Origin: Escherichia coli
GTDB taxonomy: Bacteria; Pseudomonadota; Gammaproteobacteria; Enterobacterales; Enterobacteriaceae
Strand: one strand, 5' to 3'
NCBI RefSeq assembly: GCF_044647545.1
Contig: NZ_CP172818.1
DNA: 64,000 nucleotides
Below the pieces are notes generated by a model that had not been told where the DNA came from, made no database searches, and saw only the letters and a list, made by a program, of their open reading frames with translations. How positions within the stretch are numbered: position 1 is the first letter of the stretch; every line of letters starts with the position of its first letter. This document shows, in pieces, positions 6,536-29,325 of this stretch. The translations under genes and the position numbers were made by a program.

Positions 6536-6565
6536 CCGAATCATCTGACAATATCAGAGCTAATT

Positions 6566-9175
6566 ATGAAAATACCCACTACTACGGATATTCCGCAGAG
6601 GTATACCTGGTGTCTGGCCGGAATTTGTTATTCATCTCTTGCCATTTTACCCTCCTTTTTAAGCTATGCGGAAAGTTATTTCAACCCGGCATTTTTATTA
6701 GAGAATGGCACATCCGTTGCTGATTTATCGCACTTTGAGAGAGGTAATCATCAACCTGCGGGCGTGTATCGGGTGGATCTCTGGCGTAATGATGAGTTCA
6801 TTGGTTCACAGGATATCGTATTTGAATCGACGACAGTAAATACAGGTGATAAATCAGGTGGGTTAATGCCTTGTTTTAACCAGGCACTCCTTGAACGAAT
6901 TGGCCTTAATAGCAGTGCATTCCCCGAGTTAGCCCAGCAGCAAAATAATAAATGCATCAATTTACTGAAAGCTGTACCTGATGCCACAATTAACTTTGAT
7001 TTTGCAGCGATGCGCCTGAACATCACTATTCCTCAGATAGCGTTGTTGAGTAGCGCTCACGGTTATATTCCGCCTGAAGAGTGGGATGAAGGTATTCCTG
7101 CTTTACTCCTGAATTATAATTTCACCGGTAACAGAGGTAATGGTAACGATAGCTATTTTTTTAGTGAACTCAGCGGGATTAATATTGGCCCGTGGCGTTT
7201 ACGCAACAATGGTTCCTGGAATTATTTTCGCGGAAATGGATATCATTCAGAACAGTGGAATAATATTGGCACCTGGGTACAGCGCGCCATTATTCCGCTG
7301 AAAAGTGAACTGGTAATGGGAGACGGTAATACAGGGAGTGATATTTTCGATGGCGTTGGATTTCGAGGTGTACGGCTTTATTCTTCCGATAATATGTATC
7401 CTGATAGCCAGCAGGGATTTGCTCCAACGGTACGTGGGATTGCCCGTACGGCGGCCCAGCTAACGATTCGGCAAAATGGTTTTATTATCTATCAAAGCTA
7501 TGTTTCCCCCGGCGCTTTTGAAATTACAGATTTGCACCCGACATCTTCAAATGGCGATCTGGACGTCACCATCGACGAGCGTGATGGTAATCAGCAGAAT
7601 TACACGATTCCGTATTCAACAGTGCCAATTTTACAACGCGAAGGGCGTTTCAAATTTGACCTGACGGCGGGCGATTTTCGTAGCGGTAATAGTCAGCAAT
7701 CGTCGCCTTTCTTTTTTCAGGGCACGGCACTCGGCGGTTTACCACAGGAATTTACTGCCTACGGCGGGACGCAATTATCTGCAAATTACACCGCCTTTTT
7801 GTTAGGGCTGGGGCGCAACCTCGGGAACTGGGGCGCAGTGTCGCTGGATGTAACGCATGCGCGCAGTCAGTTAGCCGACGACAGTCGTCATGAGGGGGAT
7901 TCCATTCGCTTCCTCTATGCGAAATCAATGAACACTTTCGGCACCAATTTTCAGTTAATGGGTTACCGCTATTCGACACAAGGTTTTTATACTCTTGATG
8001 ATGTTGCGTATCGTCGAATGGAGGGGTACGAATATGATTACGATTATGACGGTGAGCATCGCGATGAACCGATAATCGTGAATTACCACAATTTACGCTT
8101 TAGTCGTAAAGACCGTTTGCAGTTAAATATTTCACAATCACTTAATGACTTTGGCTCGCTTTATATTTCTGGTACCCATCAAAAATACTGGAATACTTCG
8201 GATTCAGATACCTGGTATCAGGTGGGGTATACCAGCAGCTGGGTTGGCATCAGTTATTCACTCTCATTTTCGTGGAATGAATCTGTAGGGATCCCCGATA
8301 ACGAACGTATTGTCGGACTTAATGTTTCAGTGCCTTTCAATGTTCTGACCAAACGTCGCTACACCCGGGAAAATGCGCTCGACCGCGCTTATGCCTCCTT
8401 TAACGCCAACCGTAACAGCAACGGGCAAAATAGCTGGCTGGCAGGCGTTGGTGGGACCTTACTGGAAGGCCACAACCTGAGTTATCACGTAAGCCAGGGC
8501 GATACCTCGAATAATGGGTATACGGGCAGCGCCACGGCAAACTGGCAGGCCGCTTACGGTACGCTGGGGGTCGGGTATAACTACGACCGCGATCAACATG
8601 ACGTTAACTGGCAGCTGTCTGGCGGTGTGGTCGGGCATGAAAATGGTATAACGCTGAGCCAGCCTTTAGGGGATACCAATGTTTTGATTAAAGCGCCAGG
8701 CGCAGGCGGTGTACGCATTGAAAATCAAACTGGAATTTTAACCGACTGGCGCGGCTATGCGGTGATGCCGTATGCCACGGTTTATCGGTATAACCGTATC
8801 GCGCTTGATACCAATACGATGGGGAATTCCATCGATGTTGAAAAAAATATTAGCAGCGTTGTGCCGACGCAAGGCGCGTTGGTTCGTGCCAATTTTGATA
8901 CCCGCATAGGCGTGCGGGCGCTCATTACCGTTACCCAGGGCGGAAAACCGGTGCCGTTTGGATCACTGGTACGGGAAAACAGTACCGGAATAACCAGTAT
9001 GGTGGGTGATGACGGGCAAGTTTATTTAAGCGGTGCGCCATTGTCTGGTGAATTACTGGTTCAGTGGGGAGACGGCGCGAACTCACGCTGCATAGCGCAC
9101 TATGTATTGCCGAAGCAAAGCTTACAGCAAGCCGTCACTGTTATTTCGGCAGTTTGCACACATCCTGGCTCATAA
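6566..9175 (+). CDS. sfmD: outer-membrane fimbrial usher SfmD
   Basis: 869-aa ORF; usher family size and operon position. Confidence 0.9.
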
Positions 9176-9187
9176 AGGAAATTATCA

Positions 9188-10195
9188 ATGAAGATAATCT
9201 GCAGATTATTATTGGCGATGGCATGTTTGTGGTTAACAAACATATCCTGGGCTACTGTTTGTGCAAATAGTACTGGCGTAGCAGAAGATGAACACTATGA
9301 TCTCTCAAATGTCTTTAATAGCACCAATAACCAGCCAGGGCAGATTGTTGTTTTACCGGAAAAATCCGGCTGGGTAGGTGTATCAGCAATTTGTCCACCC
9401 GGCACGCTGGTGAATTATACATACCGTAGTTATGTCACCAACTTTATTGTTCAGGAAACTATCGATAATTATAAATATATGCAATTAAATGATTATCTAT
9501 TAGGTGCGATGAGTCTGGTTGATAGCGTGATGGATATTCAATTCCCTCCGCAAAATTATATTCGTATGGGAACAGATCCTAACGTTTCGCAAAACCTTCC
9601 GTTCGGGGTGATGGATTCTCGTTTGATATTTCGTTTAAAGGTTATTCGTCCCTTTATTAACATGGTGGAGATCCCCAGACAGGTGATGTTTACCGTGTAT
9701 GTGACATCAACGCCTAACGATCCGTTGGTTACACCTGTTTATACCATTAGTTTTGGTGGCCGGGTTGAAGTACCGCAAAACTGCGAATTAAATGCCGGGC
9801 AAATTGTTGAATTTGATTTTGGTGATATCGGCGCATCGTTATTTAGTGCGGCAGGGCCGGGGAATCGACCAGCTGGTGTCATGCCGCAAACCAAGAGCAT
9901 TGCGATCAAATGTACGAATGTTGCTGCGCAGGCTTATTTAACAATGCGTCTGGAAGCCAGTGCCGTTTCTGGTCAGGCGATGGTGTCGGACAATCAGGAT
10001 TTAGGTTTTATTGTGGCCGATCAGAACGATACGCCGATCACGCCTAACGATCTCAATAGCGTTATTCCTTTCCGTCTGGATGCAGCTGCGGCAGCCAATG
10101 TCACACTTCGCGCCTGGCCTATCAGTATTACCGGTCAAAAACCGACCGAAGGGCCGTTTAGCGCGCTGGGGTATTTACGCGTCGATTATCAATGA
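9188..10195 (+). CDS. sfmH: fimbrial adhesin-like protein SfmH
   Basis: 335-aa ORF with signal peptide; exact start codon uncertain. Confidence 0.8.
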   Translation: MKIICRLLLAMACLWLTNISWATVCANSTGVAEDEHYDLSNVFNSTNNQPGQIVVLPEKSGWVGVSAICPPGTLVNYTYRSYVTNFIVQETIDNYKYMQLNDYLLGAMSLVDSVMDIQFPPQNYIRMGTDPNVSQNLPFGVMDSRLIFRLKVIRPFINMVEIPRQVMFTVYVTSTPNDPLVTPVYTISFGGRVEVPQNCELNAGQIVEFDFGDIGASLFSAAGPGNRPAGVMPQTKSIAIKCTNVAAQAYLTMRLEASAVSGQAMVSDNQDLGFIVADQNDTPITPNDLNSVIPFRLDAAAAANVTLRAWPISITGQKPTEGPFSALGYLRVDYQ

Positions 10196-10205
10196 GGTAC
10201 GGAGA

Positions 10206-10721
10206 ATGAGAAGAGTACTCTTTAGCTGTTTCTGCGGGCTACTGTGGAGTTCCAGTGGATGGGCAGTTGACCCTTTAGGAACGATTAATATCAATTTGCA
10301 CGGTAACGTTGTTGATTTCTCCTGTACCGTAAACACAGCGGATAAGGATAAGACGGTAGATTTAGGCAGATGGCCTACGACACAATTACTGAGCGCTGGC
10401 GATACCACGGCACTCGTCCCTTTTAGCCTGCGGCTGGAGGGATGTCCTCCGGGTTCAGTTGCGATTTTATTTACGGGAACGCCGGCATCTGATGCCAACC
10501 TGCTGGCTCTGGATGATCCCGCAATGGCACAAACCGTCGCCATCGAATTACGTAATAGCGATCGCTCCCGGCTCGCACTGGGGGAGGCGAGCTCGACTGA
10601 GGAAGTTGATGCAAATGGCAATGTCACACTAAACTTTTTTGCCAATTATCGAGCGTTAGCCAGCGGTGTTCAGCCTGGTGTGGCGAAAGCGGATGCGATA
10701 TTTATGATCAATTATAATTAA
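10206..10721 (+). CDS. sfmF: fimbrial minor subunit SfmF
   Basis: 171 aa from MRRVLFSCF; the longer ORF-track N-terminus overlaps sfmH and is rejected. Confidence 0.8.
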   Translation: MRRVLFSCFCGLLWSSSGWAVDPLGTININLHGNVVDFSCTVNTADKDKTVDLGRWPTTQLLSAGDTTALVPFSLRLEGCPPGSVAILFTGTPASDANLLALDDPAMAQTVAIELRNSDRSRLALGEASSTEEVDANGNVTLNFFANYRALASGVQPGVAKADAIFMINYN

Positions 10722-10723
10722 TA

Positions 10724-11356
10724 TTATATTAATTCATATAATTTGGCGTAGTCGATAAGCTCTACAATTGAATGCAAACCTAGCTTGCCATAAATATTAG
10801 ATTTATGTGCACTAACTGTTTTATTGCTAAGTAATAACTTATCGGCAATTTCTTTATTAGATAATCCGCTAACCAGATAACGTAATATGGTTACTTCACG
10901 ATTAGATAGCACAGTGACCGTTGAACTATTCGTACTACATTTATTGCTTTTTATATAGTTGAGCGTTTCGCTGGGAAAAAAAGTGTATCCGGAGAGAATC
11001 ATCTGAACGGCATGAAAAATATCATTCTGATCATTGCATTTACTGACAAAACCGTTAGCACCAGCTTGTATCGCTCTGCCAGCATAAAAGCATTCTGATT
11101 TCGATGATAAAAATAATACTTTCACTGTACTCTGAATTTGTTTGATCCTTTTTAGGAAGGTAAAACCGTCTGTACCGGGCAAGTCTATATCCATAATGAT
11201 TAAATCAACAGGACGGGTTCGGAGATAATCGATGGTTATGCGGTAATCATCCGTTTTCAGGACAATCTGCAATTCACTGTTTTTTTGCAACAGAACTTCA
11301 ATAGACATTCTGATGATAGGATGAGTATCCATAATGATCACCGACGTTGGTTTCAT
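10724..11356 (-). CDS. fimZ: LuxR/FixJ-type response regulator FimZ
   Basis: 210 aa from MKPTSVIIMD; receiver domain plus C-terminal helix-turn-helix. Confidence 0.88.
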   Translation of the reverse strand: MKPTSVIIMDTHPIIRMSIEVLLQKNSELQIVLKTDDYRITIDYLRTRPVDLIIMDIDLPGTDGFTFLKRIKQIQSTVKVLFLSSKSECFYAGRAIQAGANGFVSKCNDQNDIFHAVQMILSGYTFFPSETLNYIKSNKCSTNSSTVTVLSNREVTILRYLVSGLSNKEIADKLLLSNKTVSAHKSNIYGKLGLHSIVELIDYAKLYELI

Positions 11357-11538
11357 AGTTACCAGTCTCATTGGATCGGACAATTTTCCGTTAGGGCGGT
11401 AAATTGTACTTGATACATGAAAATACGGGTTTTCCTGATTCAGACGCGCAGCGGTGTGCGTTTGTTTGCCGCTATAACGAAATAAATCAGAAAATCAGAC
11501 GCGGTCGTTCACTTGTTCAGCAACCAGATCAAAAGCCA

Positions 11539-11566
11539 TTGACTCAGCAAGGGTTGACCGTATAAT
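11539..11566 (+). promoter_or_regulatory. candidate sigma-70 promoter of argU (-35 TTGACT, 16-bp spacer, -10 TATAAT)
   Basis: Near-consensus hexamers about 30 bp upstream of the tRNA 5' end. Confidence 0.5.
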
Positions 11567-11597
11567 TCACGCGATTACACCGCATTGCGGTATCAAC

Positions 11598-11674
11598 GCG
11601 CCCTTAGCTCAGTTGGATAGAGCAACGACCTTCTAAGTCGTGGGCCGCAGGTTCGAATCCTGCAGGGCGCGCCA
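11598..11674 (+). tRNA. argU: tRNA-Arg (anticodon UCU), ending in CCA
   Basis: 77-nt sequence GCGCCCTTAGCTCAGTTGGATAGAGCAACGACCTTCTAAGTCGTGGGCCGCAGGTTCGAATCCTGCAGGGCGCGCCA; cloverleaf-compatible; recognised argU. Confidence 0.95.
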
Positions 11675-11689
11675 TTACAATTCAATCAG

Positions 11690-12853
11690 TTACGCCTTCT
11701 TTATATCCTCCATAATTCCAGAGTGGGACATATTTGGGACATTATCACCAAAAATGTCGTCTATTTTCCTCGCATGCTCTGTCAAATGATTAGGCGCAAG
11801 GTGAGCATACCTACGAACCATTTCTATGGACTCCCATCCGCCCATTTCCTGAAGCACTGATAATGGGACGCCTGACTGAATCAGCCAGCTTGCCCAGGTG
11901 TGTCTGAGGTCATGGAAACGGAAATCTTCAATTCCTGCACGACGACAAGCTGATAGCCATGATGTCTTGCTGTCGATGCGCATCTTCCTGACCGCAGGCG
12001 TTGATGTTCCATCTGCTCGCTTAGCCGCCTTGGTATGTACAAACACCCATTTGTGATGCTTGCCTATTTGATCACGCAACACTTTACAGGCGGTATCGTT
12101 CAGCGCCACACCAATGGCGCGGTTTGATTTGCTCTCTTCTGGATTCACCCAGGCAACTCGTCGCTGCATGTCGATTTGTTGCCATTCCAGATTTATGATG
12201 TTCGACTTTCTCAGACCAGTTGCCAGCGCAAACTTGACGACAGATTTCAGTGGTTCGGGGCACTCATCAATAAGGCGTTTTGCTTCCTCCTTTTCCAGCC
12301 ATCTGACTCGCTTGTTTCTGACCGCTGGTATCTTGATGACAGGCGCTTTTTCCAGCCACTTCCAGTCGCGTTCTGCAGCACGGAGAATGGCCTTTATCAT
12401 GGCAAGATGCTTTGCCTTTGTCTGAGTTGATACTGGCTTTGGTTCATAAACAGGCAGTTCTTTACCTTTCCTGATGGCGGCCTGAACTTTCTGTTTCCAT
12501 ATTTCTTTCGTCTTTCTGTTATGCATTCTGCTTACAGCAGAGTAAATCTTTGCCTCCGAGATATCTTTAAGCCTTATACCCTCAAAATGTTCAAGCCAGA
12601 ACTCAATCCGGCTTTTATCTGAATCGAGAGATTTTTTATCAGCTTTTTCCTCAAGCCATCTTAGGCAGGCCTCTTCAAAAGTGACATCAGGTAAATCCCC
12701 TAGCTTTTCTACTCGCCAGAGTTCTGCTTTTCGCTTGTCGTGCAACTCCTGAGCTTGCCGCTTGTCCTTTGTGCCAAGAGATTCCTTAATTCGTTTCCCG
12801 CCCGGGAGCGAATACGAGGCATACCATATTTCATTTCTGCGGAAGAGTGACAT
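11690..12853 (-). CDS. intD: prophage tyrosine integrase
   Basis: 387-aa ORF 15 bp downstream of the tRNA; C-terminal R..HxxR..Y catalytic region ([13 protein letters not shown]). Confidence 0.9.
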
Positions 12854-12972
12854 TTTCTTTCCTCTGTTATGCCATCACCCGCGCTCACCTGGACAGTATG
12901 CAGCGGAGACTGAAGCGCCGCAATGCAGGCTTGCCGTGTTGTGAGGTACCCGGATATTATCGTGAGGATGCG

Positions 12973-13311
12973 TCATCGCCATTGCTCCCCAAATACAAAA
13001 CCAATTTCAGCCAGTGCCTCGTCCATTTTTTCGATGAACTCCGGCACCATCTCGTCAAAACTCGCCATGTACTTTTCATCCCGCTCAACCACGACATAAT
13101 GCAGTCCTTCACGCTTCATACGCGGGTCATAGTTGGCAAAGTACCAGGCATCTTTTCGTGTCACCCACATGCTGTACTGCACCTGGGCCATGTAAGCCGA
13201 CTTTATGGCCTCGAAACCACCGAGCCGGAACTTCATGAAATCCCGGGAGGTACGAGTATTGCCGGAAGCGCGGGCTGTATCCGGATGCAGAGTCTTATCC
13301 GTGGAAATCAA
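12973..13311 (-). pseudogene. exoD: lambda exonuclease (Exo) C-terminal fragment
   Basis: 112-aa ORF whose sequence ([50 protein letters not shown]...GFVFGEQWR) corresponds to the C-terminal part of lambda Exo only. Confidence 0.7.
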
Positions 13312-13349
13312 ACGCGCACTACTGGCTGGTTACCAACCTGTATCAGAAC

Positions 13350-13562
13350 ATGCGGGCCAATGCGTTGACTGACGCGGAATTACGGCGCAAGGCTGCCGAT
13401 GAACTGTCCTGTATGACCGCACGAATTAACCGTGGTGAGGCTATACCTGAACCAGTAAAACAACTTCCTGTCATGGGCGGTAGACCTCTAAATCGTGCAC
13501 AGGCTCTGGCGAAGATCGCAGAAATCAAAGCTAAGTTTGGGCTGAAAGGAGCAAGGGTATGA
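13350..13562 (+). pseudogene. peaD: lambda replication protein P C-terminal fragment
   Basis: 70-aa ORF ending ...AEIKAKFGLKGARV, matching the end of lambda P; no N-terminal part present. Confidence 0.6.
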
Positions 13563-13716
13563 CGGGCAAAGAGGCAATTATTCATTACCTGGGGACTCAT
13601 AAGAAATTCTGTGCGCAGGACGTTGCCGCGGTAACAGGCGCAACGGTAATCTGATCTTACCCAGCAATAGTGGACACGCGGCTAAGTGAGTAAACTCTCA
13701 GTCAGAGGTGACTCAC

Positions 13717-14016
13717 ATGACAAAAACAGTATCAACCAGTAAAAAACCCCGTAAACAGCATTCGCCTGAATTTCGCAGTGAAGCCCTGAAGCTTGCTGAA
13801 CGCATCGGTGTTACTGCCGCAGCCCGTGAACTCAGCCTGTATGAATCACAACTCTACAACTGGCGCAGTAAACAGCAAAATCAGCAGACGTCTTCTGAAC
13901 GTGAACTGGAGATGTCTACCGAGATTGCACGTCTCAAACGCCAGCTGGCAGAACGGGATGAAGAGCTGGCTATCCTCCAAAAGGCCGCGACATACTTCGC
14001 GAAGCGCCTGAAATGA
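13717..14016 (+). CDS. insE: IS3 OrfA (transposase N-terminal, helix-turn-helix)
   Basis: 99 aa from [15 protein letters not shown]; recognised IS3 OrfA. Confidence 0.88.
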
Positions 14017-14879
14017 AGTATGTCTTTATTGAAAAACATCAGGCTGAGTTCAGCATCAAAGCAATGTGCCGCGTGCTCCGGGTGGCCCGCAGCGGCTGGT
14101 ATACGTGGTGTCAGCGGCGGACAAGGATAAGCACGCGTCAGCAGTTCCGCCAACACTGCGACAGCGTTGTCCTCGCGGCTTTTACCCGGTCAAAACAGCG
14201 TTACGGTGCCCCACGCCTGACGGATGAACTGCGTGCTCAGGGTTACCCCTTTAACGTAAAAACCGTGGCGGCAAGCCTGCGCCGTCAGGGACTGAGGGCA
14301 AAGGCCTCCCGGAAGTTCAGCCCGGTCAGCTACCGCGCACACGGCCTGCCTGTGTCAGAAAATCTGTTGGAGCAGGATTTTTACGCCAGTGGCCCGAACC
14401 AGAAGTGGGCAGGAGACATCACGTACTTACGTACAGATGAAGGCTGGCTGTATCTGGCAGTGGTCATTGACCTGTGGTCACGTGCCGTTATTGGCTGGTC
14501 AATGTCGCCACGCATGACGGCGCAACTGGCCTGCGATGCCCTGCAGATGGCGCTGTGGCGGCGTAAGAGGCCCCGGAACGTTATCGTTCACACGGACCGT
14601 GGAGGCCAGTACTGTTCAGCAGATTATCAGGCGCAACTGAAGCGGCATAATCTGCGTGGAAGTATGAGCGCAAAAGGTTGCTGCTACGATAATGCCTGCG
14701 TGGAAAGCTTCTTTCATTCGCTGAAAGTGGAATGTATCCATGGAGAACACTTTATCAGCCGGGAAATAATGCGGGCAACGGTGTTTAATTATATCGAATG
14801 TGATTACAATCGGTGGCGGCGGCACAGTTGGTGTGGCGGCCTCAGTCCGGAACAATTTGAAAACAAGAACCTCGCTTAG
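14013..14879 (+). CDS. insF: IS3 OrfB transposase (DDE catalytic domain; normally made as an OrfAB fusion by -1 frameshift)
   Basis: 288-aa ORF overlapping insE; recognised IS3 OrfB. Confidence 0.88.
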
Positions 14880-15189
14880 GCCTGTGTCCATATTACGTGG
14901 GTAGGATCAACCAGCATAAATCAGGCTGCGGCTAAAATGGCACGGGCAGGTCTTCTGGCTATCGAAGGTAAGGTCTGGCGAACGGTGTATTACCGGTTTG
15001 CTACCAGAGAAGAACGGGAAGGAAAGGTGAGCACGAATCTGATTTTTAAGGAGTGTCGCCAGAGTGCCGCGATGAAACGGGTATTGAGGGTATATAAAAG
15101 AACATCAATGGGTACACAATGATGAAACAGGTGAGTTGAGTTCAAACTGTAGTACAATTCTCTCCAGTTTGAACAGGAAAGAATATTCT

Positions 15190-15522
15190 ATGAACCCTTA
15201 TATTTATCTTGGTGGTGCAATACTTGCAGAGGTCATTGGTACAACCTTAATGAAGTTTTCAGAAGGTTTTACACGGTTATGGCCATCTGTTGGTACAATT
15301 ATTTGTTATTGTGCATCATTCTGGTTATTAGCTCAGACGCTGGCTTATATTCCTACAGGGATTGCTTATGCTATCTGGTCAGGAGTCGGTATTGTCCTGA
15401 TTAGCTTACTGTCATGGGGACTTTTCGGCCAACGGCTGGACCTGCCAGCCATTATAGGCATGATGTTGATTTGTGCCGGTGTGTTGGTTATTAATTTATT
15501 GTCACGAAGCACACCACATTAA
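15190..15522 (+). CDS. emrE: small multidrug resistance efflux transporter EmrE
   Basis: 110 aa from MNPYIYLGGAILAEVIGTTLMK, four transmembrane helices, conserved Glu in the first helix. Confidence 0.9.
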   Translation: MNPYIYLGGAILAEVIGTTLMKFSEGFTRLWPSVGTIICYCASFWLLAQTLAYIPTGIAYAIWSGVGIVLISLLSWGLFGQRLDLPAIIGMMLICAGVLVINLLSRSTPH

Positions 15523-15553
15523 AAATAATTTGTTTCTAAACGACTAAAATATG

Positions 15554-15586
15554 GAGGCTCTTATATTTATATGAGCCTCGTTTTAT
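15554..15586 (+). terminator. candidate rho-independent terminator after emrE
   Basis: GAGGCTC / GAGCCTC stem with AT-rich loop followed by GTTTTATGCTTTTT. Confidence 0.45.
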
Positions 15587-15778
15587 GCTTTTTGTTAATG
15601 TCTTTATTTTTTTATGTATTCTTTTGTGCTTTCAAGATTATGGCGTAAGAAAATTGCAATACGATTATTGTTGTATATTCAAGATAATGTGACCTTAATT
15701 GTCTTTTTAAATAAAAATTAAACAAAAATTATATCCCACCACTAAGGTTTATAAAAGCATACGTTAGCAGGTGTCACC

Positions 15779-17305
15779 ATGAAAAAAGCCATAGCATATA
15801 TGCGATTTTCATCACCAGGTCAGATGTCTGGCGACTCATTAAACCGACAGAGAAGACTTATTGCTGAATGGTTAAAGGTAAATAGTGATTATTATCTTGA
15901 TACCATAACATATGAAGATTTAGGATTAAGTGCATTCAAAGGAAAGCATGCACAATCAGGAGCTTTTTCGGAATTTTTAGATGCTATAGAGCATGGTTAT
16001 ATATTGCCAGGAACTACATTGTTAGTTGAAAGTCTGGACAGACTTTCAAGAGAAAAAGTCGGTGAAGCGATTGAACGTCTGAAATTGATTTTGAATCACG
16101 GTATTGATGTTATAACTCTTTGCGACAATACAGTCTATAATATTGACTCTTTGAATGAGCCATATTCATTAATAAAAGCCATACTTATAGCACAAAGGGC
16201 AAATGAAGAAAGCGAGATAAAGTCAAGTCGGGTTAAATTATCATGGAAGAAAAAACGGCAGGATGCACTGGAATCAGGTACGATTATGACGGCGTCTTGT
16301 CCGAGATGGCTCTCCTTAGATGACAAAAGAACGGCTTTTGTTCCAGACCCCGACAGGGTGAAAACTATTGAGCTAATTTTTAAACTCAGGATGGAAAGGC
16401 GCTCATTGAATGCAATAGCCAAGTATTTAAATGATCATGCTGTAAAGAATTTCTCAGGAAAAGAAAGTGCATGGGGACCTTCTGTAATTGAAAAATTATT
16501 AGCGAATAAAGCTCTGATAGGTATATGCGTACCTTCATATCGTGCAAGAGGTAAAGGAATAAGTGAAATCGCTGGCTATTATCCCAGAGTCATATCAGAT
16601 GATTTGTTTTACGCTGTACAGGAAATTCGGTTGGCACCTTTTGGTATTAGCAATAGTAGCAAAAATCCTATGTTGATAAATCTACTTCGAACAGTTATGA
16701 AGTGCGAGGCTTGTGGTAATACCATGATTGTTCATGCGGTATCTGGAAGTTTGCATGGCTATTATGTTTGTCCGATGAGAAGACTGCATCGATGTGACAG
16801 GCCATCAATAAAGAGAGATTTGGTTGATTATAATATCATTAATGAGTTGCTTTTTAATTGTAGTAAAATCCAACCAGTTGAAAACAAGAAAGATGCTAAT
16901 GAAACTTTAGAGTTGAAAATTATTGAGCTCCAGATGAAAATTAATAATTTAATTGCTGCATTATCTGTTGCGCCTGAAGTTACCGCTATAGCAGAAAAAA
17001 TCAGAGTATTAGATAAGGAATTACGAAGGGCTTCTGTATCATTAAAAACTTTGAAGAGTAAAGCGGTGAGTTCACTTGGTGATTTTCATGCTATTGACTT
17101 AACCAGTAAAAATGGGCGAGAGCTATGTCGTACACTTGCCTATAAAACATTCGAAAAAATCATAATCAATACAGATAATAAAACCTGTGATATCTATTTT
17201 ATGAATGGCATTGTTTTTAAACACTATCCTTTAATGAAAACAATATCCGCCCAGCAGGCGATAAGTACTCTCAAATATATGGTTGATGGTGAGGTTTATT
17301 TTTGA
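15779..17305 (+). CDS. ybcK: large serine recombinase family protein
   Basis: 508-aa ORF; N-terminal resolvase-like catalytic motif (AYMRFSSPGQ), central recombinase domain, Cys-rich zinc ribbon (CEACGN...CPMRRLHRCD), C-terminal coiled-coil-like region. Confidence 0.85.
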   Translation: MKKAIAYMRFSSPGQMSGDSLNRQRRLIAEWLKVNSDYYLDTITYEDLGLSAFKGKHAQSGAFSEFLDAIEHGYILPGTTLLVESLDRLSREKVGEAIERLKLILNHGIDVITLCDNTVYNIDSLNEPYSLIKAILIAQRANEESEIKSSRVKLSWKKKRQDALESGTIMTASCPRWLSLDDKRTAFVPDPDRVKTIELIFKLRMERRSLNAIAKYLNDHAVKNFSGKESAWGPSVIEKLLANKALIGICVPSYRARGKGISEIAGYYPRVISDDLFYAVQEIRLAPFGISNSSKNPMLINLLRTVMKCEACGNTMIVHAVSGSLHGYYVCPMRRLHRCDRPSIKRDLVDYNIINELLFNCSKIQPVENKKDANETLELKIIELQMKINNLIAALSVAPEVTAIAEKIRVLDKELRRASVSLKTLKSKAVSSLGDFHAIDLTSKNGRELCRTLAYKTFEKIIINTDNKTCDIYFMNGIVFKHYPLMKTISAQQAISTLKYMVDGEVYF

Positions 17306-17499
17306 GTAATAATCTTTTTTACGTCGTGCTATAGTAAGAAAGTGCAAGACAGAATTAATTATCTTTGACGAAACTTAATGGGTAATTACTTTGTTTGCTC
17401 CCACAAGCGAGTTTTGTACGGCTGTATTGGGGTAGTAAATGAGCTATACAATCTTAATCATTTGTTAGGTGAGAACTCTTGGTCGCAGATTCAAATACT

Positions 17500-17549
17500 G
17501 AAAATACGTGACAAATTATTATGAGCAAAATGGTGTATGTCACGTATTT
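17500..17549. repeat. 13-bp perfect inverted repeat pair (AAAATACGTGACA ... TGTCACGTATTTT) separated by 24 bp
   Basis: Seen directly in the ybcK-ybcL intergenic region. Confidence 0.6.
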
Positions 17550-17762
17550 TGAATGGTAGGTTAAAAAATAACACCGACTTTCGTAGGTATTACTAATAAT
17601 AAAGCAGAGTTTTTAGATAGTATCAATGTGCTTTGTGTATATTGTGGCAAATAATTGGGTTGCTGAGGGGTAGAATGTGATTGCTTTTGCATGAACACTT
17701 TATGCATAATGAGATAAAGGAATATCAAATAAAGAACGATAGGTCATAACAAAGAGGTTTTT

Positions 17763-18312
17763 ATGAAAACACTTATCGTTTCAACTGTATTGGCATTCAT
17801 AACATTTTCTGCGCAGGCTGCAGCATTTCAGGTCACTAGTAATGAAATAAAAACAGGAGAGCAACTTACAACGTCTCATGTCTTTCTCGATTTGGGTGTG
17901 AAGGTGGTAATACATCGCCCTCATTAACCTGGTCTGGTGTTCCTGAAGGTACCAAAAGCTTTGCCGTAACTGTATATGATCCAGATGCACCTACAGGCAG
18001 TGGTTGGTGGCATTGGACTGTTGTTAATATTCCAGCAACAGTAACATATTTTCCGTTGATGCAGGGAGACGTGATGGAACAAAACTGCCGACTGGTGCTG
18101 TTCAAGGCCGAAATGATTTTGGCTATGCTGGGTTTGGTGGCGCATGTCCTCCTAAAGGAGATAAACCACATCATTACCAGTTTAAAGTATGGGCTCTAAA
18201 AACTGAAAAGATTCCTGTAGATTCTAACTCCAGCGGAGCGTTAGTTGGTTATATGCTTAATGCTAATAAAATCGCAACCGCTGAGATAACACCAGTTTAT
18301 GAGATAAAGTAG
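17763..18312 (+). pseudogene. ybcL: periplasmic PEBP/UPF0098 family protein with two frame breaks in this assembly
   Basis: Signal peptide MKTLIVSTVLAFITFSAQA; the protein is recovered across three frames with shifts near 17884 (T-run) and 18054 (C-run); corrected length would be 183 aa. Confidence 0.7.
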
Positions 18313-18321
18313 GGTGAGAGT

Positions 18322-19119
18322 ATGCTGGCAAGAGGTAAGACTAACTTAAAGATCGAAGAAATACGGATGCATAAACATCATGAGATTCATAGGGTTAAGC
18401 CTCTTATGCCAGCTTTGTGTCGTATCCGTCAGGGAAAGAAAGTTATCAATTGGGAGACGCATACTTTAACTGTTGATAATAATCAAATAATATTATTTCC
18501 TTGTGGTTATGAATTTTATATTGAGAATTATCCTGAAGCAGGGCTTTATCTTGCAGAAATGCTTTACTTACCCATTGATTTAATTGAGAGTTTCCAAAAA
18601 CTTTATACGGTAACTGATCAAATACGTAACAAAACAAGTTTCTTTTTACCTCAGAATCCTGAGTTAATATATTGTTGGGAGCAACTAAAAACATCTGTTT
18701 CCCGAGGCTTCTCAACTAAAATTCAGGAGCACTTAGCAATGGGCGTTCTACTTTCGTTAGGAGTGAATCATGTTAATCATTTACTTTTATCATATAGTAA
18801 ACAATCATTGATAAGTCGTTGTTATAACCTGCTGCTATCCGAACCCGGCACAAAATGGACAGCAAACAAGGTTGCTCGATATCTCTACATTTCTGTTTCT
18901 ACATTACATCGCCGTCTAGCAAGCGAGGGGGTAAGTTTCCAAAGTATACTGGACGATGTGAGGTTAAATAATGCGTTGTCTGCTATACAAACGACGGTAA
19001 AACCTATAAGCGAGATTGCCAGAGAAAATGGTTATAAGTGTCCTTCTCGTTTTACTGAAAGATTTCATAATCGTTTTAATATAACACCAAGAGAGATAAG
19101 AAAAGCTTCCAGAGAGTAA
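18322..19119 (+). CDS. ybcM: AraC-family transcriptional regulator
   Basis: 265-aa ORF with C-terminal AraC-type helix-turn-helix. Confidence 0.85.
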
Positions 19120-19235
19120 AAGTGTTTTAAGAAGGAGCAATTCTATCGATTTTGATTTGCGATAATCAACTCGCCATAATCATGTCATCGGAGCCTGAAC
19201 AACTCCGGTGACTTCTGCGCTAAACGGGGACGTTT

Positions 19236-19337
19236 ATGCGCACACACAATCCAAACTCTCTTCTCCCTCCACAGATGCAGAAATGCACCTGCGATATATT
19301 GTATCCAGCGTTTGACCTCTGCGGAGGTGAAGCGTGA
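19236..19337 (+). CDS. ylcH: small prophage ORF (33 aa)
   Basis: Short [36 protein letters not shown] ending 4 bp into ybcN; small size, low certainty. Confidence 0.35.
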
Positions 19338-19789
19338 ATCTCCCACAAGATGGCATCAAATTACATCGCGGTAACTTCACCGCTATCGGTCGGCAGATCC
19401 AGCCTTATCTGGAGGAGGGCAAATGCTTTCGCATGGTGCTTAAACCGTGGCGTGAGAAACGCAGTCTTTCCCAGAATGCACTCAGCCACATGTGGTACAG
19501 CGAAATCAGTGAATACCTCATCAGCAGGGGTAAAACGTTCGCTACTCCAGCTTGGGTAAAAGATGCTCTCAAACACACATATCTCGGTTATGAAACCAAA
19601 GACCTGGTTGATGTCGTAACCGGTGATATCACCACTATCCAGTCGTTACGCCATACCTCCGATCTTGATACCGGAGAGATGTATGTCTTCCTGTGTAAGG
19701 TTGAAGCCTGGGCGGTGAATATTGGCTGCCACCTGACTATTCCGCAGAGCTGCGAGTTCCAGCTGCTCCGCGACAAGCAGGAGGCGTAA
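19334..19789 (+). CDS. ybcN: NinB-like prophage protein
   Basis: 151-aa ORF with apparent GTG start; position ahead of ninE/rusA in a lambda nin-like region. Confidence 0.8.
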
Positions 19790-19959
19790 TGGCTACACCG
19801 CTTATTCGTGTCATGAACGGACACATCTACAGAGTACCAGATCGTCGTAAGCGTAAACCGGAGCTGAAGCCTTCCGAAATACCAACACTGCTCGGATATA
19901 CCGCCAGCCTGGTTGATAAAAAATGGTTGCGACTGGCAGCAAGGAGGAATCATGGCTGA
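19789..19959 (+). CDS. ninE: NinE-family prophage protein (56 aa)
   Basis: [26 protein letters not shown]... overlapping ybcN stop; below ORF-track size cutoff. Confidence 0.6.
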   Translation: MATPLIRVMNGHIYRVPDRRKRKPELKPSEIPTLLGYTASLVDKKWLRLAARRNHG

Positions 19960-20242
19960 TTTGAGAAAAGCAGCGCGTAGTCGGGAATGCCAGGTAAGAA
20001 TCCCTGGCGTATGTAATGGCAACCCTGAAACGTCTGTACTGGCACATATCCGGCTGACTGGATTGTGCGGCACCGGTACCAAACCGCCAGACCTGATTGC
20101 CACCATTGCATGTTCTGCCTGCCACGACGAAATCGACCGCCGCACACATTTTGTCGATGCTGCATATGCAAAAGAATGCGCGCTGGAAGGTATGGCGAGA
20201 ACACAGGTTATCTGGCTGAAAGAGGGGGTTATTAAGGCGTGA
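19952..20242 (+). CDS. ybcO: prophage protein YbcO (Cys-rich, 96 aa)
   Basis: 96 aa from [10 protein letters not shown]; conserved nin-region position. Confidence 0.75.
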
Positions 20243-20601
20243 ATACCTACAGCATCACATTACCCTGGCCTCCGAGCAATAATCGCTATTACCGCCATAA
20301 TCGCGGGCGCACGCACGTCAGCGCAGAGGGGCAGGCATACCGCGATAACGTCGCCCGAATCATTAAAAACGCAATGCTGGATATCGGCCTGGCTATGCCT
20401 GTGAAAATCCGCATTGAGTGCCACATGCCGGATCGCCGTCGCCGTGACCTGGATAATCTGCAAAAAGCCGCTTTTGACGCACTCACTAAAGCAGGTTTCT
20501 GGCTGGATGATGCTCAGGTCGTTGATTACCGCGTTGTGAAGATGCCTGTTACCAAAGGTGGGAGGCTGGAACTGACCATCACCGAAATGGGGAATGAATG
20601 A
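20239..20601 (+). CDS. rusA: Holliday junction resolvase RusA
   Basis: 120-aa [21 protein letters not shown]...; recognised RusA. Confidence 0.9.
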
Positions 20602-20738
20602 TGTTTGAGTTTTATATGGCAGAACGTCTTCGCCACCGCTGGGGGCGTCTGCGCTTATATCGTTTCCCCGGTTCTGTTTTGACCGATTACCGAATACTGA
20701 AGAATTACGCCAAAACCCTGACAGGAGCAGGAGTATGA
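20598..20738 (+). CDS. ylcG: small prophage ORF (46 aa)
   Basis: [26 protein letters not shown]... overlapping rusA stop; verified codon by codon. Confidence 0.45.
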
Positions 20739-20823
20739 AGTCAGAGATAACAATCAACTAATACTGTTTCGTTGATTTTTGCTTGTAATTGGCGTTCTGG
20801 TCTGATTTTTGTGGAGTAAGTTG

Positions 20824-21207
20824 ATGCGTGATATTCAGATGGTTCTTGAGCGTTGGGGAGCGTGGGCGGCTAATAATCATGAAGATGTGACCTGGTCGTC
20901 CATTGCCGCCGGTTTTAAGGGATTAATTACTTCAAAAGTAAAATCTCGCCCACAATGTTGTGACGATGACGCGATGATCATTTGCGGGTGCATGGCCCGT
21001 CTGAAAAAGAACAACAGCGATTTGCATGATTTATTGGTGGACTATTATGTCGGCGGCATGACTTTTATGGCGCTTGCACGTAAGCATGGGCGATCTGATT
21101 GTTGGGTTGGCAGGATGCTTCAGAAAGCTGAGGGCGTAGTGGAGGGTATGCTGATGGTGTTGGATCTCCGATTGGAGATGGATGTCGTTGTTAATAACTC
21201 TAATTAA
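20824..21207 (+). CDS. quuD: Q-family late-gene antiterminator
   Basis: 127 aa from [18 protein letters not shown]; immediately upstream of a hairpin-rich regulatory region. Confidence 0.8.
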
Positions 21208-21458: not shown

Positions 21459-22653
<1,195 letters not shown>

Positions 22654-23683
22654 TTAGTGAAGTCATTTTTGTCAAGCAGGTTGATTTTGTAATCAACGAA
22701 AGTAGACATATTTTTGTTGAAGTAATAGGTTGCACCTACATCAACATATTTGACTAAGTCCTGATCGCCCCATACTCCAAGATCCTTACCTTTAGATTGC
22801 AGGTAAGCAACGGACGGACGCAGACCGAAATCGAACTGATATTGTGCAACAGCTTCGAAGTTTTGGGCTTTATTAGCAACGAAGTGATCAGCAAATACAG
22901 TCATATTCTGGGTTTCAGAATAGGTAGTGGCCAGGTAAATGTTGTTAGCGTCATATTTCAGACCTGCGGCCCAAACTTCTGCATTTTTACCGGAAGCAAA
23001 TACTTCAGGAAGAACTTTCCCTGCATTAACTTGAGTGTCGGTACGATCAGATTTCGCATAAGTTGCACCGATACCGAATCCTTCGTATTCATAGGTAGCA
23101 GAGAAACCGAAGCCATCACCGTTACCTTCAGTGTAGTTATCGAAATCGCTACGATCGTTTTTGCCTTGGTACTGAATCGCAAAATCAAGACCATCAACCA
23201 GGCCAAGAAATCATAGTTACGGTAGGTTGCAACACCGTTGGTACGACCATTCATGAAGTTGTCAGCGGAAGCCCAGGAATCGCCACCCCATTCAACTAAC
23301 ATATCGGTATAAGCTGCGGCATCATAAGCAACACCGTAGTTACGGCCATAGTCAAATGACCACTCGTTATATTTCAAACCGGCGAAGGTTAAACGGGTTT
23401 TTTCCTGGTTTTCACCTTCGGGCTTGCTGGCGTCGAGGTTGTATTCAAACTGACCAAAACCAGTCAGTTCGCTGGTGATTTGGGTTTCACCTTTGAAGCC
23501 AAGACGGGCATAAGTAGTATCACCATCATCTGCATCATTAGAGGAGAAGTAGTGCTTAGCATTAACTTTCCCGTACAGATCCAGCTTGTTACTGTCTTTA
23601 TTATAAATTTCAGCTGCCTGAGCAGACATCGCCATTAGTACTGATGCAGCTACAGCAGAAATTGCCACTGTTAATTTTTTCAT
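22654..23683 (-). pseudogene. nmpC: OmpC-family outer-membrane porin, truncated at the 3' end by IS5 and carrying an internal single-base frame break near 23205
   Basis: Signal peptide [23 protein letters not shown]; porin sequence reads YRNYDF then shifts frame, then continues in frame to the IS5 junction (last residues EGANKSLI come from IS5). Confidence 0.8.
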
Positions 23684-24258
23684 CGTGAGCCCTTTTTTTG
23701 AACTATTATTAAAAAATGATGTCACTGCGCGATAAATATTCATCTAATCAATGTGATTATTTCAAGATGTAAGTTTTGGTTTCTCGTTTGATTTGTGAAG
23801 TAGATCTCTATTTTTATCTGAACTTTTTTCTATCGAATCCTATTCATGGCTCTTGGCTGAATAAAAATAAATCTATTAGCCAATTTATATTAACGGCTGT
23901 TATTTATAAGTGCTCTATAATTTGAAGGTTCAATTTAAACCGGCTAAAAATAACACTGGAAATTATTTTTTGGTTATTTGTTGAGATTTGCTTATGTATT
24001 TGTAGTGGTGTTTTCAATACTCGGTAGCATTCTCTCAAATATCATTTAGTGGTTTACGTACGTAAAAAATTGGTTATGCTGTTAAGAGTGGTTACTTCGT
24101 CACACAGCTTAAACCCGCCGTCGAGCGGGTTTTTCCATTTTTTGAGTCTCGATATTAGCTGATAACCCAATACCTGAGTTATTCACTGACTCCGAGTCTG
24201 TTACGTTTCGTAGTATTCCCTCAATTTACACCCATCCGTTATTTGCGGAGGTGAGGCT

Positions 24259-24474
24259 ATGAAATCCATGGATAAGTTAACAACGGGCATTGCCTACGGC
24301 ACCTCCGCAGGCAGTGCTGGCTACTGGTTTTTACAGCTGCTCGATAAAGTCACGCCCTCACAGTGGGCAGCAATAGGTGTGCTGGGTAGCTTGGTATTTG
24401 GCCTGCTGACGTACCTGACAAACCTTTATTTCAAGATTAAAGAAGATAAGCGCAAGGCTGCGAGAGGTGAATAA
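24259..24474 (+). CDS. essD: phage holin (71 aa)
   Basis: Two hydrophobic segments and charged C-terminus; first gene of the lysis cassette. Confidence 0.85.
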
Positions 24475-24971
24475 TGCCTCCATCATTACGAAAAGCCGTT
24501 GCTGCTGCTATTGGTGGCGGAGCAATTGCTATAGCATCAGTGTTAATCACTGGCCCAAGTGGTAACGATGGTCTGGAAGGTGTCAGCTACATACCATACA
24601 AAGATATCGTTGGCGTATGGACTGTATGTCACGGGCATACAGGAAAAGACATCATTCCCGGTAAAACGTATACCGAAGCAGAATGCAAAGCCCTCCTGAA
24701 TAAAGACCTTGCCACGGTAGCCAGACAAATTAACCCGTACATCAAAGTCGATATACCGGAAACAACGCGCGGCGCTCTTTACTCGTTCGTCTATAACGTG
24801 GGCGCAGGCAATTTCAGAACATCTACTCTTCTTCGCAAAATAAACCAGGGCGATATCAAGGGCGCATGTGACCAGCTACGTCGCTGGGCATACGCTGGCG
24901 GTAAGCAATGGAAAGGCCTGATGACTCGTCGTGAGATTGAGCGTGAGGTCTGTTTGTGGGGGCAACAATGA
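24474..24971 (+). CDS. rrrD: phage endolysin (lysozyme family)
   Basis: 165-aa ORF overlapping holin stop; N-terminal signal-anchor-like segment. Confidence 0.85.
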
Positions 24972-25342
24972 GCAGAGTCACCGCGATTATCTCCGCTCTG
25001 GTTATCTGCATCATCGTCTGCCTGTCATGGGCTGTTAATCATTACCGTGATAACGCCATCGCCTACAAAGAACAGCGCGATAAAAAAGTCAGTGAGCTGA
25101 AGCAGGCGACCGCCACCATTACTGACATGCAGCAGCGCCAGCGTGATGCTGATGCACTCGATGCTAAATACACGAAGGAGTTAGCTGATGCGAAAGCTGA
25201 AAATGATGCTCTTCGGCGCAAGCTTGATAATGGTGGTCGGGTGCTCGTCAAAGGAAAATGCCCTGTGCCATCCTCAGCCGAAACCTCCAGCGCCTCCGGC
25301 ATGGGCAATGATGCCACCGTCGAACTCAAAGACCGAGAATAA
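24968..25342 (+). CDS. rzpD: Rz-like inner-membrane spanin subunit (reading frame as it stands in this sequence)
   Basis: N-terminal transmembrane segment [21 protein letters not shown], coiled-coil-like region; frame terminates at 25342 while the following Rz-like C-terminal peptide lies in the +1 frame. Confidence 0.6.
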
Positions 25343-25445
25343 AAACTATCCAGTTAGCGACGAATATCTGGACCCAATTATCGCGACCAAAACAGCACTG
25401 AGAACGCTTCAGGAATTCATCAGGACGCAATGTCCTTCGAGATAG
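25188..25445 (+). CDS. rzoD: Rz1-like outer-membrane lipoprotein spanin subunit, +1 frame inside and extending beyond the Rz frame
   Basis: [12 protein letters not shown] lipobox, proline-rich PKPPAPPAW; true C-terminus uncertain. Confidence 0.45.
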
Positions 25446-25602
25446 CGATTATTTTACTCATCATTCCCTTCACATCTGGCTCTGTAGACAGTTCACTTCT
25501 GAAATCCAATAAACATCTCATTCTGATGCTTGATATTGAGCATTTTGCGCGCGGTAAGGGGCTGCGTTGAGATAAGAACCAGTAAAAATAAACCAGGATT
25601 TA

Positions 25603-25625
25603 GCCTCGCATTCGCGGGGCTTTTT
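25603..25625 (+). terminator. candidate rho-independent terminator of the lysis operon
   Basis: GCCTCGC ATTC GCGGGGC hairpin (7-bp stem with one G-U pair) followed by TTTTT. Confidence 0.5.
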
Positions 25626-25709
25626 ATTGCCATTACAAAAGCCACTTCCTACAGAGTGGCTTTGATAATGGTTTATACCCTACACGGGATAACTTAACTG
25701 ATATCCCTT

Positions 25710-25874
25710 TTAAAGGATAAAGGTATTCAAGCCTGACACATCATGCGCTGTATCGTCGCCGTATTCCCGTATTAACAGAGACCGTAGCCCGACGGGGAAC
25801 TCCTTCTGCGCGAGTGTGCGGGAATAATCAAAAACGATGCACACCGGGGTTACCGGGTACACATATTTCATCAT
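25710..25874 (-). CDS. hypothetical small ORF (54 aa)
   Basis: ORF MMKYVYPVTPVCIVFDYSRTLAQKEFPVGL...; no recognisable family; below ORF-track cutoff. Confidence 0.2.
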   Translation of the reverse strand: MMKYVYPVTPVCIVFDYSRTLAQKEFPVGLRSLLIREYGDDTAHDVSGLNTFIL

Positions 25875-25919
25875 GCCAGCGAGTCCGGTTCTGGCACGGA
25901 AGAAACCGGACGTTATGAT

Positions 25920-26330
25920 TTAGTGCGGAAATATTTGTGTAGTGTTCTGAATGTTCTCAGTAAAGAGTAATGAATTATCAAAGGTATAGTAATACCTTTT
26001 GTTTTCGTGGATATTTGTAATCCATCTGAAAACCCCTGCTGTAGCAAGATTTTTCCTGTATTCGTAAAATGATAACTCTCCTGATTTGAATCCTTTTAAG
26101 GTGGCTTCTATAAGGCATTTATTTTTTGAAAATCTTACATTTACAACCTTACCCTGTCCTTTTATTAAAACCGTATTATCGTTTTCAAGAACAAGATGAA
26201 TATTCTCTGTAGCTAAATAGTAAATGTAATGTGAGACATTGTGACGTTTTAGTTCAGAATAAAACCAGTGATAGTTTAAATTATTTCGCACTTTATCGAA
26301 TATTTGTTTAAAAATGGCAACCTGAGCCAT
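25920..26330 (-). CDS. ybcV: prophage protein YbcV (DUF1398-like)
   Basis: 136 aa from [31 protein letters not shown]. Confidence 0.75.
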
Positions 26331-26662
26331 TGTGGTACCTTCCATGTGATATGAGGGGCGTAGTCTGCACGATTATCTAAATTGCTTCAATCTGGTCTGA
26401 TTTTTGAGAATTTAAATAAGCAGATTAGAAGGGAAACGCTGAAATTCATGTTGTTTTCAATAAACAAAGAATGGACGAAAAATCATAAAGACAATACTGC
26501 CAGGACAGGTTAAAAACTATCTTAATACACATTCGATGGTTAGATGTTTAATCATGTATAGAACATCATACCTAAAATACTAAAAGCAAAAGAAACGAAG
26601 GAATCCTCTATAATTAATCTATCAAAGAAGAGAATACGTATCTGACTAAGAGACTAATCAAC

Positions 26663-26896
26663 TCAGCAATCCTCGTATTTAGGGAATACAATACGTCCAG
26701 TGTCACTCTTTTCTTTGTTTGCTTCAGGAGAAACTCTTTTTTCTGAGCACAGTCTCCGGCGGCAGGCTTCAATGACCCAGGCTGAGAAATTCCCGGACCC
26801 TTTTTGATCAAGAGCGATGTTAATTTGTTCAATCATTTGGTTAGGAAAGCGGATGTTGCGGATTGTTGTTCTGCGGGTTCTGTTCTTCGTTGACAT
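26663..26896 (-). CDS. ylcI: small DNA-binding-like prophage protein (YlcI/DUF3950-like)
   Basis: 77-aa ORF MSTKNRTRRTTIRNIRFPNQMIEQINIALDQKGSGNFSAWVIEACRRRL; start codon uncertain. Confidence 0.5.
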   Translation of the reverse strand: MSTKNRTRRTTIRNIRFPNQMIEQINIALDQKGSGNFSAWVIEACRRRLCSEKRVSPEANKEKSDTGRIVFPKYEDC

Positions 26897-27095
26897 GAGG
26901 TTGTCCCGTATTTAGTGTCGCTGATTTGTATTGTCTGAAGTTGTTTTTACGTTAAGTTGATGCAGATCAATTAATATGATACCTGCGTCATAATTGATTA
27001 TTTGACGTGGTTTGATGGCGTAGATGCACGTTGTGACATGCAGATGATAATTATTATCATTTTGCGGGTCCTTTCCGGCGATCCGACAGGTTACG

Positions 27096-27107
27096 GGGCG
27101 GCGACCT
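27096..27107 (+). other. lambda-type cosN cohesive-end sequence GGGCGGCGACCT
   Basis: Exact lambda cohesive-end 12-mer preceded by GATCCGACAGGTTACG; CGTTTCC/GGAAACG repeats (terminase small-subunit binding elements) lie between it and nohD. Confidence 0.8.
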
Positions 27108-27284
27108 CGCGGGTTTTCGCTATTTATGAAAAATTTCCGGTTTAAGGCGTTTCCGTTCTTCTTCGTCATAACTTAATGTTTTTATTTAAAATACCCTCTG
27201 AAAAGAAAGGAAACGACAGGTGCTGAAAGCGAGCTTTTTGGCCTCTGTCGTTTCCTTTCTCTGTTTTTGTCCGTGGAATGAACA

Positions 27285-27830
27285 ATGGAAGTCAACAAAA
27301 AGCAGCTGGCTGACATTTTCGGTGCGAGTATCCGTACCATTCAGAACTGGCAGGAACAGGGAATGCCCGTTCTGCGAGGCGGTGGCAAGGGTAATGAGGT
27401 GCTTTATGACTCTGCCGCCGTCATAAAATGGTATGCCGAAAGGGATGCTGAAATTGAGAACGAAAAGCTGCGCCGGGAGGTTGAAGAACTGCGGCAGGCC
27501 AGCGAGGCAGATCTCCAGCCAGGAACTATTGAGTACGAACGCCATCGACTTACGCGTGCGCAGGCCGACGCACAGGAACTGAAGAATGCCAGAGACTCCG
27601 CTGAAGTGGTGGAAACCGCATTCTGTACTTTCGTGTTGTCGCGGATCGCAGGTGAAATTGCCAGTATTCTCGACGGGCTCCCCCTGTCGGTGCAGCGGCG
27701 TTTTCCGGAACTGGAAAACCGACATGTTGATTTCCTGAAACGGGATATTATCAAAGCCATGAACAAAGCAGCCGCGCTGGATGAACTGATACCGGGGTTG
27801 CTGAGTGAATATATCGAACAGTCAGGTTAA
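27285..27830 (+). CDS. nohD: terminase small subunit (lambda Nu1 homologue)
   Basis: 181-aa [49 protein letters not shown]...; recognised Nu1 sequence. Confidence 0.9.
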
Positions 27831-28548: not shown

Positions 28549-28602
28549 TCATTGGGATTATGCCGCAGCACGTCTTAAGCAAGAACATGCTGCGGTTGGA
28601 TG

Positions 28603-29187: not shown

Positions 29188-29325
29188 AACCCACCAGTCA
29201 TAAAGCTTTAGGGTAAGTGGTGTGTAAATTCTAGCCCCATCATCTGTGTTTTTTTATTAATTTCACCATGTTATAGTTTTATTTGTGAATTAAATCAATT
29301 ATGGCAATGAATTACAAGGGGTTAA

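Follow-up and report, generated by a model that had tools for sequence, protein, structure and literature searches.

The window analysed here, a stretch of 64,000 nucleotides from Escherichia coli, contains a copy of the prophage gene ybcL that cannot be read as one protein. A gene interrupted in this way may be a pseudogene of the living organism, or it may have been damaged on the way from the DNA to the sequence record. We therefore ask what was altered in ybcL, whether the alterations occur elsewhere, and whether the DNA around the gene is consistent with one bacterial lineage.

The ybcL reading frame and its repaired product

Among the proteins encoded by DLP12-type prophages, the periplasmic PEBP / Raf-kinase-inhibitor homologue YbcL has been described well. 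In strain K-12, the gene (b0545) is part of the defective prophage DLP12 and encodes the periplasmic PEBP / Raf-kinase-inhibitor-like protein of structure 1FUX. The window holds the same gene in the same slot, and the order ybcK-ybcL-ybcM is that of K-12. The coding region extends over positions 17763-18312 of the plus strand. A global alignment to ybcL of K-12 MG1655, which is 552 nt long and located at 20168-20719 of the MG1655 stretch compared, revealed a length of 550 nt in the window. Unlike b0545, the gene in the window has two 1-nt deletions, each accompanied by an adjoining substitution, an open reading frame of 54 codons, and four further changes upstream.

Translation showed that three frames are needed to follow the protein. 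Frame 1 starts at 17763 with the signal peptide (MKTLIVSTVLAFITFSAQA...), carries the YbcL sequence to about 17884 and closes with a stop codon at 17925-17927 after 54 codons. The YbcL sequence continues in frame 3 up to about 18053 and then in frame 2 to the stop codon at 18310-18312, where it ends with ...PVYEIK. As written, the gene yields only a 54-aa N-terminal product, which consists of the signal peptide and about 20 residues followed by out-of-frame residues. A single intact frame for the signal peptide and the PEBP domain is absent because of the two -1 frameshifts. The ribosome-binding site and the ATG (17750-17765) are unaltered. The evidence for the frameshifts is a comparison with a reference and not a statistical pattern, and chance is not at issue.

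At the first frameshift site (17883-17888, plus strand), GTCTTTTCTGGA of K-12 is replaced by GTCTTTCTCGA; a run of four T is shortened to three at 17883-85, and G is exchanged for C at 17888. At the second site (18049-18055, plus strand), TATTTGCCCGTT is replaced by TATTTTCCGTT, with a run of three C shortened to two at 18053-54 and a G>T exchange at 18052. These four edits are the only differences in the gene; outside both sites, its 550 nt are identical to K-12. Restoring one base at each site yields 552 nt and 183 codons ending in ...PVYEIK. The naive repair leaves the substitutions G43R at the first site and L97F at the second, so that the repaired protein is identical to K-12 YbcL in 181 of 183 residues. 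Alignment to K-12 ybcL thus located both indels where a sequence-only reading of this DNA had placed the loss of one base each, near 17884 and near 18054, and the repaired translation has the 183 codons which that reading had predicted.

After the two-base repair only, a profile search matched residues 42-180 of the 183-aa protein to the Pfam family PBP (PF01161) with an E-value of 5.9e-42. The match to the YbcL chain of PDB entry 1FUX had an E-value of 6e-111; over the 164 aligned residues, the differences were the two repair substitutions and one residue at the second position of the chain. Judged by these matches, the repaired product is a PEBP-family protein and essentially the crystallised YbcL, in agreement with the gene assignment made from the letters alone. 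A uropathogenic variant of YbcL was reported to suppress transepithelial neutrophil migration, an activity that laboratory and commensal variants were reported to lack owing to one residue (PMC4810123). Apart from the disruptions, ybcL of the window shows no departure from the known YbcL family.

A cluster of private changes in and upstream of ybcL

The two frameshift sites belong to a larger group of alterations. Compared to K-12, the window has six private events, all of them within 465 bp (17589-18053): the two sites in ybcL and four events upstream of the gene on the plus strand. The latter comprise a G>A exchange at 17589, several changes combined at 17663-17676 (insertion of CTGA, a C>G exchange and the loss of one T), a 6-bp deletion of TTGCGC between 17697 and 17698, and the shortening of A4 to A3 together with a T>G exchange at 17731-17735. 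Five of the six events include an indel. The events at 17731-35, 17883-88 and 18052-54 have a common signature, a homopolymer of 3-4 nt that lost one base and a substitution 0-3 nt away from it. The neighbouring DNA is unchanged with respect to K-12 on both sides, over 245 nt to the left (17344-17588) and over 1,097 nt to the right (18054-19150), a stretch that includes the remainder of ybcL and the complete ybcM. The earlier description of two independent single-base losses in homopolymers consequently holds for the losses themselves and not for their independence or simplicity, as each is joined to a substitution and both are part of the six-event patch.

The position 17697/17698 of the 6-bp deletion is also the exact point at which the alignment with divergent emrE-ybcL-ybcM cassettes starts, and ISVsa5 is inserted at the same position in strain ET12567. 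It may represent the left edge of a mobile cargo cassette carrying ybcL and ybcM.

The disrupting mutations were searched for in 5,426 complete RefSeq genomes of E. coli, in metagenome contigs, in a one-genome-per-species collection and in a gene index, and no independent occurrence was found in any of them. None of the RefSeq genomes contains the variants of the patch; the best match to 17650-18070 was 95.8% identical and of the K-12 type, and for the section 17650-17745 the best match, also of the K-12 type, reached just 86.5%. In exact-pattern scans, a 32-mer with the variant of the first site had no match in the metagenome contigs, where the 33-mer of the wild type, used as control, was present 17 times; a 31-mer with the variant of the second site had no match in the collection of one genome per species (100,044 species). 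The gene index held no match to the truncated YbcL of 54 aa. Of the 5,426 genomes, 664 contain the K-12-type gene itself, and 15 of 16 full-length copies on metagenome contigs are intact frames of 552 nt. The sole indel-bearing copy among these 16 is on a contig with a coverage of 2.5x.

The wild-type sequences TTTTCTGGA and TTTGCCCG were kept in all five other alleles that were aligned, K-12-type as well as divergent. Recombination with a divergent ybcL, or a collapse onto one, was considered as source of the changes and rejected: the alleles of ZH063, O157:H16, 700481 and 2013C-4465 are wild-type at every altered site, and none of their SNPs is found in the window. The edits of the patch were matched neither in the divergent ybcL alleles nor in 94 kb of ST648 sequence. 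In strain 700481, ybcL is annotated as pseudogene with an internal stop and is part of an otherwise ordinary emrE-ybcL-ybcM cassette. That allele has a single disruptive change, its other differences being common to the intact allele of O157:H16, whereas the window has six clustered private events on an allele that is otherwise identical to K-12.

ST648-lineage sequence on the K-12 layout of DLP12

The window was compared to K-12 MG1655 and to NZ_CP008697 as representative of ST648. It is collinear with K-12 and about 97.6% identical to it. At 793 diagnostic sites that differ between K-12 and ST648, the window has the ST648-type base 778 times, the K-12-type base 14 times and neither once. ST648-like genomes of phylogroup F match the sections 1-6000 and 30001-55000 at 100.0% identity. 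Identities of 99.75-100% to NZ_CP008697 were observed for 1-12948, 12947-13252, 13251-13649, 14909-17343, 19151-21184, 26701-28112 and 29476-39769.

The structural junctions of the window, on the other hand, are those of the K-12 prophage DLP12, namely the int/exo' and exo'/'P deletions, IS3 inside ren, IS5 inside nmpC, and the terminase/tail-fibre deletion. The lambdoid prophage of ST648 is intact and longer at these points, by 1.36, 5.4 and about 22.5 kb. The int/exo' and exo'/'P junctions, at about 12948 and 13252, are located in a segment (12947-13649) with a sequence that is 100% ST648, although ST648 possesses the additional 1.36 kb and 5.4 kb precisely here. IS3 follows at 13650-14908 on the plus strand; it occupies the exact insertion site of K-12, is identical to the K-12 copy in 1259 of 1259 positions, and is flanked by ST648-type DNA on both sides.

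A similar pattern was observed around ybcL. The left flank with ren', emrE, ylcJ and ybcK (14909-17343, plus strand) is of the ST648 type, with 99.75% identity to NZ_CP008697. The right flank with ybcN, ninE, ybcO, rusA, ylcG and a part of Q (19151-21184, plus strand) is 100% ST648-type. Between them lies a block known from K-12 only (17344-19150, plus strand), which comprises the upstream region of ybcL, ybcL and ybcM and has no ST648 homologue at this slot. It agrees with K-12 in 1798 of 1807 aligned positions; ybcM (18322-19119, plus strand), coding for a regulator of the AraC family with 265 aa, is intact and without any difference to K-12. The context of ybcL is thus not consistent with one lineage, being a K-12-identical block within ST648-type flanks. 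In the left flank, ylcJ (about 15560-15720) has an additional T at 15607 compared to K-12. ST648 has this frameshift too, and its annotation marks ylcJ accordingly; the frameshift looks like a genuine allele of the lineage, in contrast to the private changes in ybcL.

In ST648, the slot between ybcK and ybcN is filled by a gene with a P22AR-C domain and a hypothetical gene, and ybcL and ybcM are absent from it. The exact YbcK allele of the window was followed by P22AR-C cargo, and not by ybcL, in 10 of the 10 places listed. No similarity was detectable between the ST648 cargo and the ybcL block, and mis-mapped reads from this cargo were rejected as an explanation on that ground. Since the slot holds other cargo in ST648 and behind this YbcK allele, and since that cargo has no similarity to ybcL-ybcM, the two genes in the window are most probably carried over from a reference. 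Going by these relatives, the sequenced organism may have no ybcL at this locus.

Other stretches of DNA limited to the reference were likewise kept unchanged. The K-12-only block at 28113-29475 is identical to K-12 in 1363 of 1363 positions, and the block of IS5 and nmpC is K-12-identical save for one patch (23176-23476); together with 17589-18053, this patch is the only exception. Of eight block edges, six have ST648-type diagnostic sites within 1-9 nt; at the ybcL-ybcM block, the nearest such site is 6 nt away from the left edge and 9 nt from the right edge. Edges this close to the limits of homology are expected from read mapping and not from homologous recombination. A natural recombinant prophage would need five structural events specific to K-12 to be remade in ST648-type DNA at the same nucleotides; the alternative form of this explanation is conversion tracts that end within 1-9 nt of most junctions. 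Both forms were judged untenable. The two marks of a reference-templated sequence, K-12 junctions and IS sites on the one hand and non-reference alleles in homologous DNA on the other, were both found.

Two further garbled patches private to the window, 23176-23476 and 25327-25591, lie where K-12 and ST648 differ in structure. The first is in nmpC (22626-23743, minus strand), which is interrupted by IS5 as in K-12. It diverges from K-12 by about 30% and is 10 nt shorter overall, which throws the porin out of frame near 23205; the flanks of the patch are 100% K-12. A known porin allele was rejected as its source, as the porins in the two comparison stretches did not match it; for the chimeric NmpC of 241 aa, no record was found. 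The second patch is rich in indels relative to ST648 (an insertion of 19 nt and deletions of 10 and 7 nt), at a place where K-12 (with bor) and ST648 have different structures. For the surrounding section 24200-28150, the best match in RefSeq was just 98.1% identical over 91% of the query.

The window deviates from the K-12 layout in three places (25216-26700, about 43430 and 54308-19). The sequence at 25216-26700 is not that of K-12, and it includes 299 nt (26402-26700) that match neither the K-12 nor the ST648 stretches compared. Near 43430, 130 nt of K-12 are missing. The IS186/IS421 copy by hokE, which K-12 shares with the ST648-like strain CUVET20-416, is missing as well; 54308-54319 is the empty IS186 site, with 12 nt that align to both sides of the insertion in K-12. 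Because of the departures at IS186, at the 130 nt and at 25216-26700, the window is not a plain reference with SNPs, and local reassembly must be included in any account of its origin. At 39769/39770, an island of about 10-11 kb with an ISAs1 transposase, RHS proteins, a DcrB-like protein and VgrG is missing in the window and in K-12; in ST648-like genomes it sits between nfrB and cusS.

Outside the prophage, about 55 kb are essentially free of private differences, with one difference in a segment of 12.9 kb, one in a segment of 10.3 kb and 100.0% identity over 25 kb. A genome-wide base-calling problem was therefore rejected, the sections 1-12948, 29476-39769 and 30001-55000 being 99.99-100% identical to ST648-lineage genomes.

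Among the 5,426 genomes, matches that cross the junctions in a single piece were restricted to records with the K-12 layout, including BHUCD02, PD007 and EK2009. These three (NZ_CM183444.1, NZ_CP120910.1 and NZ_CP040663.1, respectively) are designated as complete genomes, come from human or chicken isolates and have the DLP12 layout of K-12. The records of BHUCD02 and PD007 are within about 120 bp of the length of K-12, and that of EK2009 is about 37 kb shorter. BHUCD02, an isolate from human stool, was examined further. Its DLP12 has the architecture of K-12, down to the sites of IS3 and IS5; like the window, the record combines this layout with non-K-12 alleles in the flanks, namely in ybcK and ybcN. 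The accessions of its YbcL and YbcM are K-12-identical. Its ybcL is intact, whereas the window has private patches rich in indels. Internal stops were seen in fimA and fimH of this record. Judging from structure, and with BHUCD02 as the one examined, the three records are probably K-12-templated as well.

Origin of the frameshifted ybcL

Taken together, we consider it likely that the window derives from an ST648-lineage isolate whose assembly or consensus was templated on K-12, and that ybcL is a carry-over from the reference with local consensus errors. The frameshifts, their private nature, the mosaic, the exact edges of the blocks and the lack of ybcL at this slot in ST648 relatives are direct observations; the templating procedure and the process that wrote the patch are inferred. 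A reference-guided assembly, consensus or polishing step would have laid the sequence of the isolate on a structural template of K-12. In regions of homology to K-12, the bases of the isolate would appear; where K-12 DNA has no counterpart at the position in the isolate, the K-12 sequence would be carried over, and the ybcL-ybcM block (17344-19150) would be one such case. The six-edit patch would have been written when the consensus of this carried-over block, with no proper read support, was called or polished. On this view, the frameshifts would not have arisen by mutation in a living gene, and they would also not be plain homopolymer miscalls at a locus that is truly present. Two points count against this account of the patch: its edits were matched by none of the sequences compared, and carry-over at zero coverage alone should be error-free, just as it is in 18054-19150.

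Errors of reading could also have arisen in a gene that the organism possesses. A K-12-type ybcL-ybcM, present here or in another lambdoid prophage, would in that case be intact, with frameshifts introduced by read or consensus errors at poor coverage. The signature shared by three of the six edits appears typical of a noisy consensus at low depth, the 465 bp of the patch correspond to about one read length, and the frequency of K-12-type ybcL among E. coli genomes makes its presence in the isolate plausible; the one indel-bearing copy on metagenome contigs, with its low coverage, would fit as well. We nevertheless regard this explanation as unlikely, since the window is essentially error-free outside the prophage and the edges of the block coincide within 6-9 nt with those of K-12/ST648 homology, in a slot that holds other cargo in ST648 relatives. 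Essentially this explanation had been preferred by the sequence-only reading, which leaned towards an artefact over natural decay. The results support that direction, and less so the base-calling pattern it had in mind, given a K-12 block in an ST648 mosaic and the lack of a general base-calling problem.

Rather improbable is a genuine and recent inactivation of ybcL, with relaxed selection on prophage cargo allowing two frameshifts and changes in the promoter region. The interrupted gene of strain 700481 demonstrates that disrupted ybcL exists in nature, and selection on the gene may be weak if K-12-type YbcL lacks the neutrophil-suppressing activity, as reported (PMC4810123). Neutral decay would, however, hardly place six private events, five of them with an indel, in 465 bp next to 245 nt and 1,097 nt without a change; the variants were in no other record or contig searched, and the chimeric context makes the locus itself doubtful. 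The sequence may also be a faithful copy of a real strain that combines an ST648 background with a K-12-like DLP12 remnant, in which one event of about 0.5 kb, for example error-prone repair, wrote all six mutations and silenced ybcL; we regard this as more improbable still. That ybcL is functional as written, by two programmed -1 ribosomal frameshifts, is scarcely credible. The frame could be regained by slipping -1 at both sites, but neither site has a slippery heptamer of the form X XXY YYZ, and all other ybcL alleles examined are one uninterrupted frame of 552 nt. The changes are private, so that nothing about them is conserved. All explanations other than templating, read errors and a real pseudogene together have a very small probability.

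With K-12 templating as the favoured explanation, the frameshifts in ybcL probably have no biological meaning, and the gene should be counted neither as a pseudogene nor as evidence on selection of cargo genes. The DLP12-like prophage region at about 11.6-30 kb of the window appears to be a K-12-templated chimera, which needs confirmation at the level of reads before it is used as the true sequence of the organism. The same caution applies to other results from this region, for example the frameshift in nmpC, the positions of IS3 and IS5, the prophage deletions and the missing RHS island. A mosaic of this kind is also present in at least one RefSeq record (BHUCD02), a point of relevance to surveys of pan-genomes and pseudogenes.
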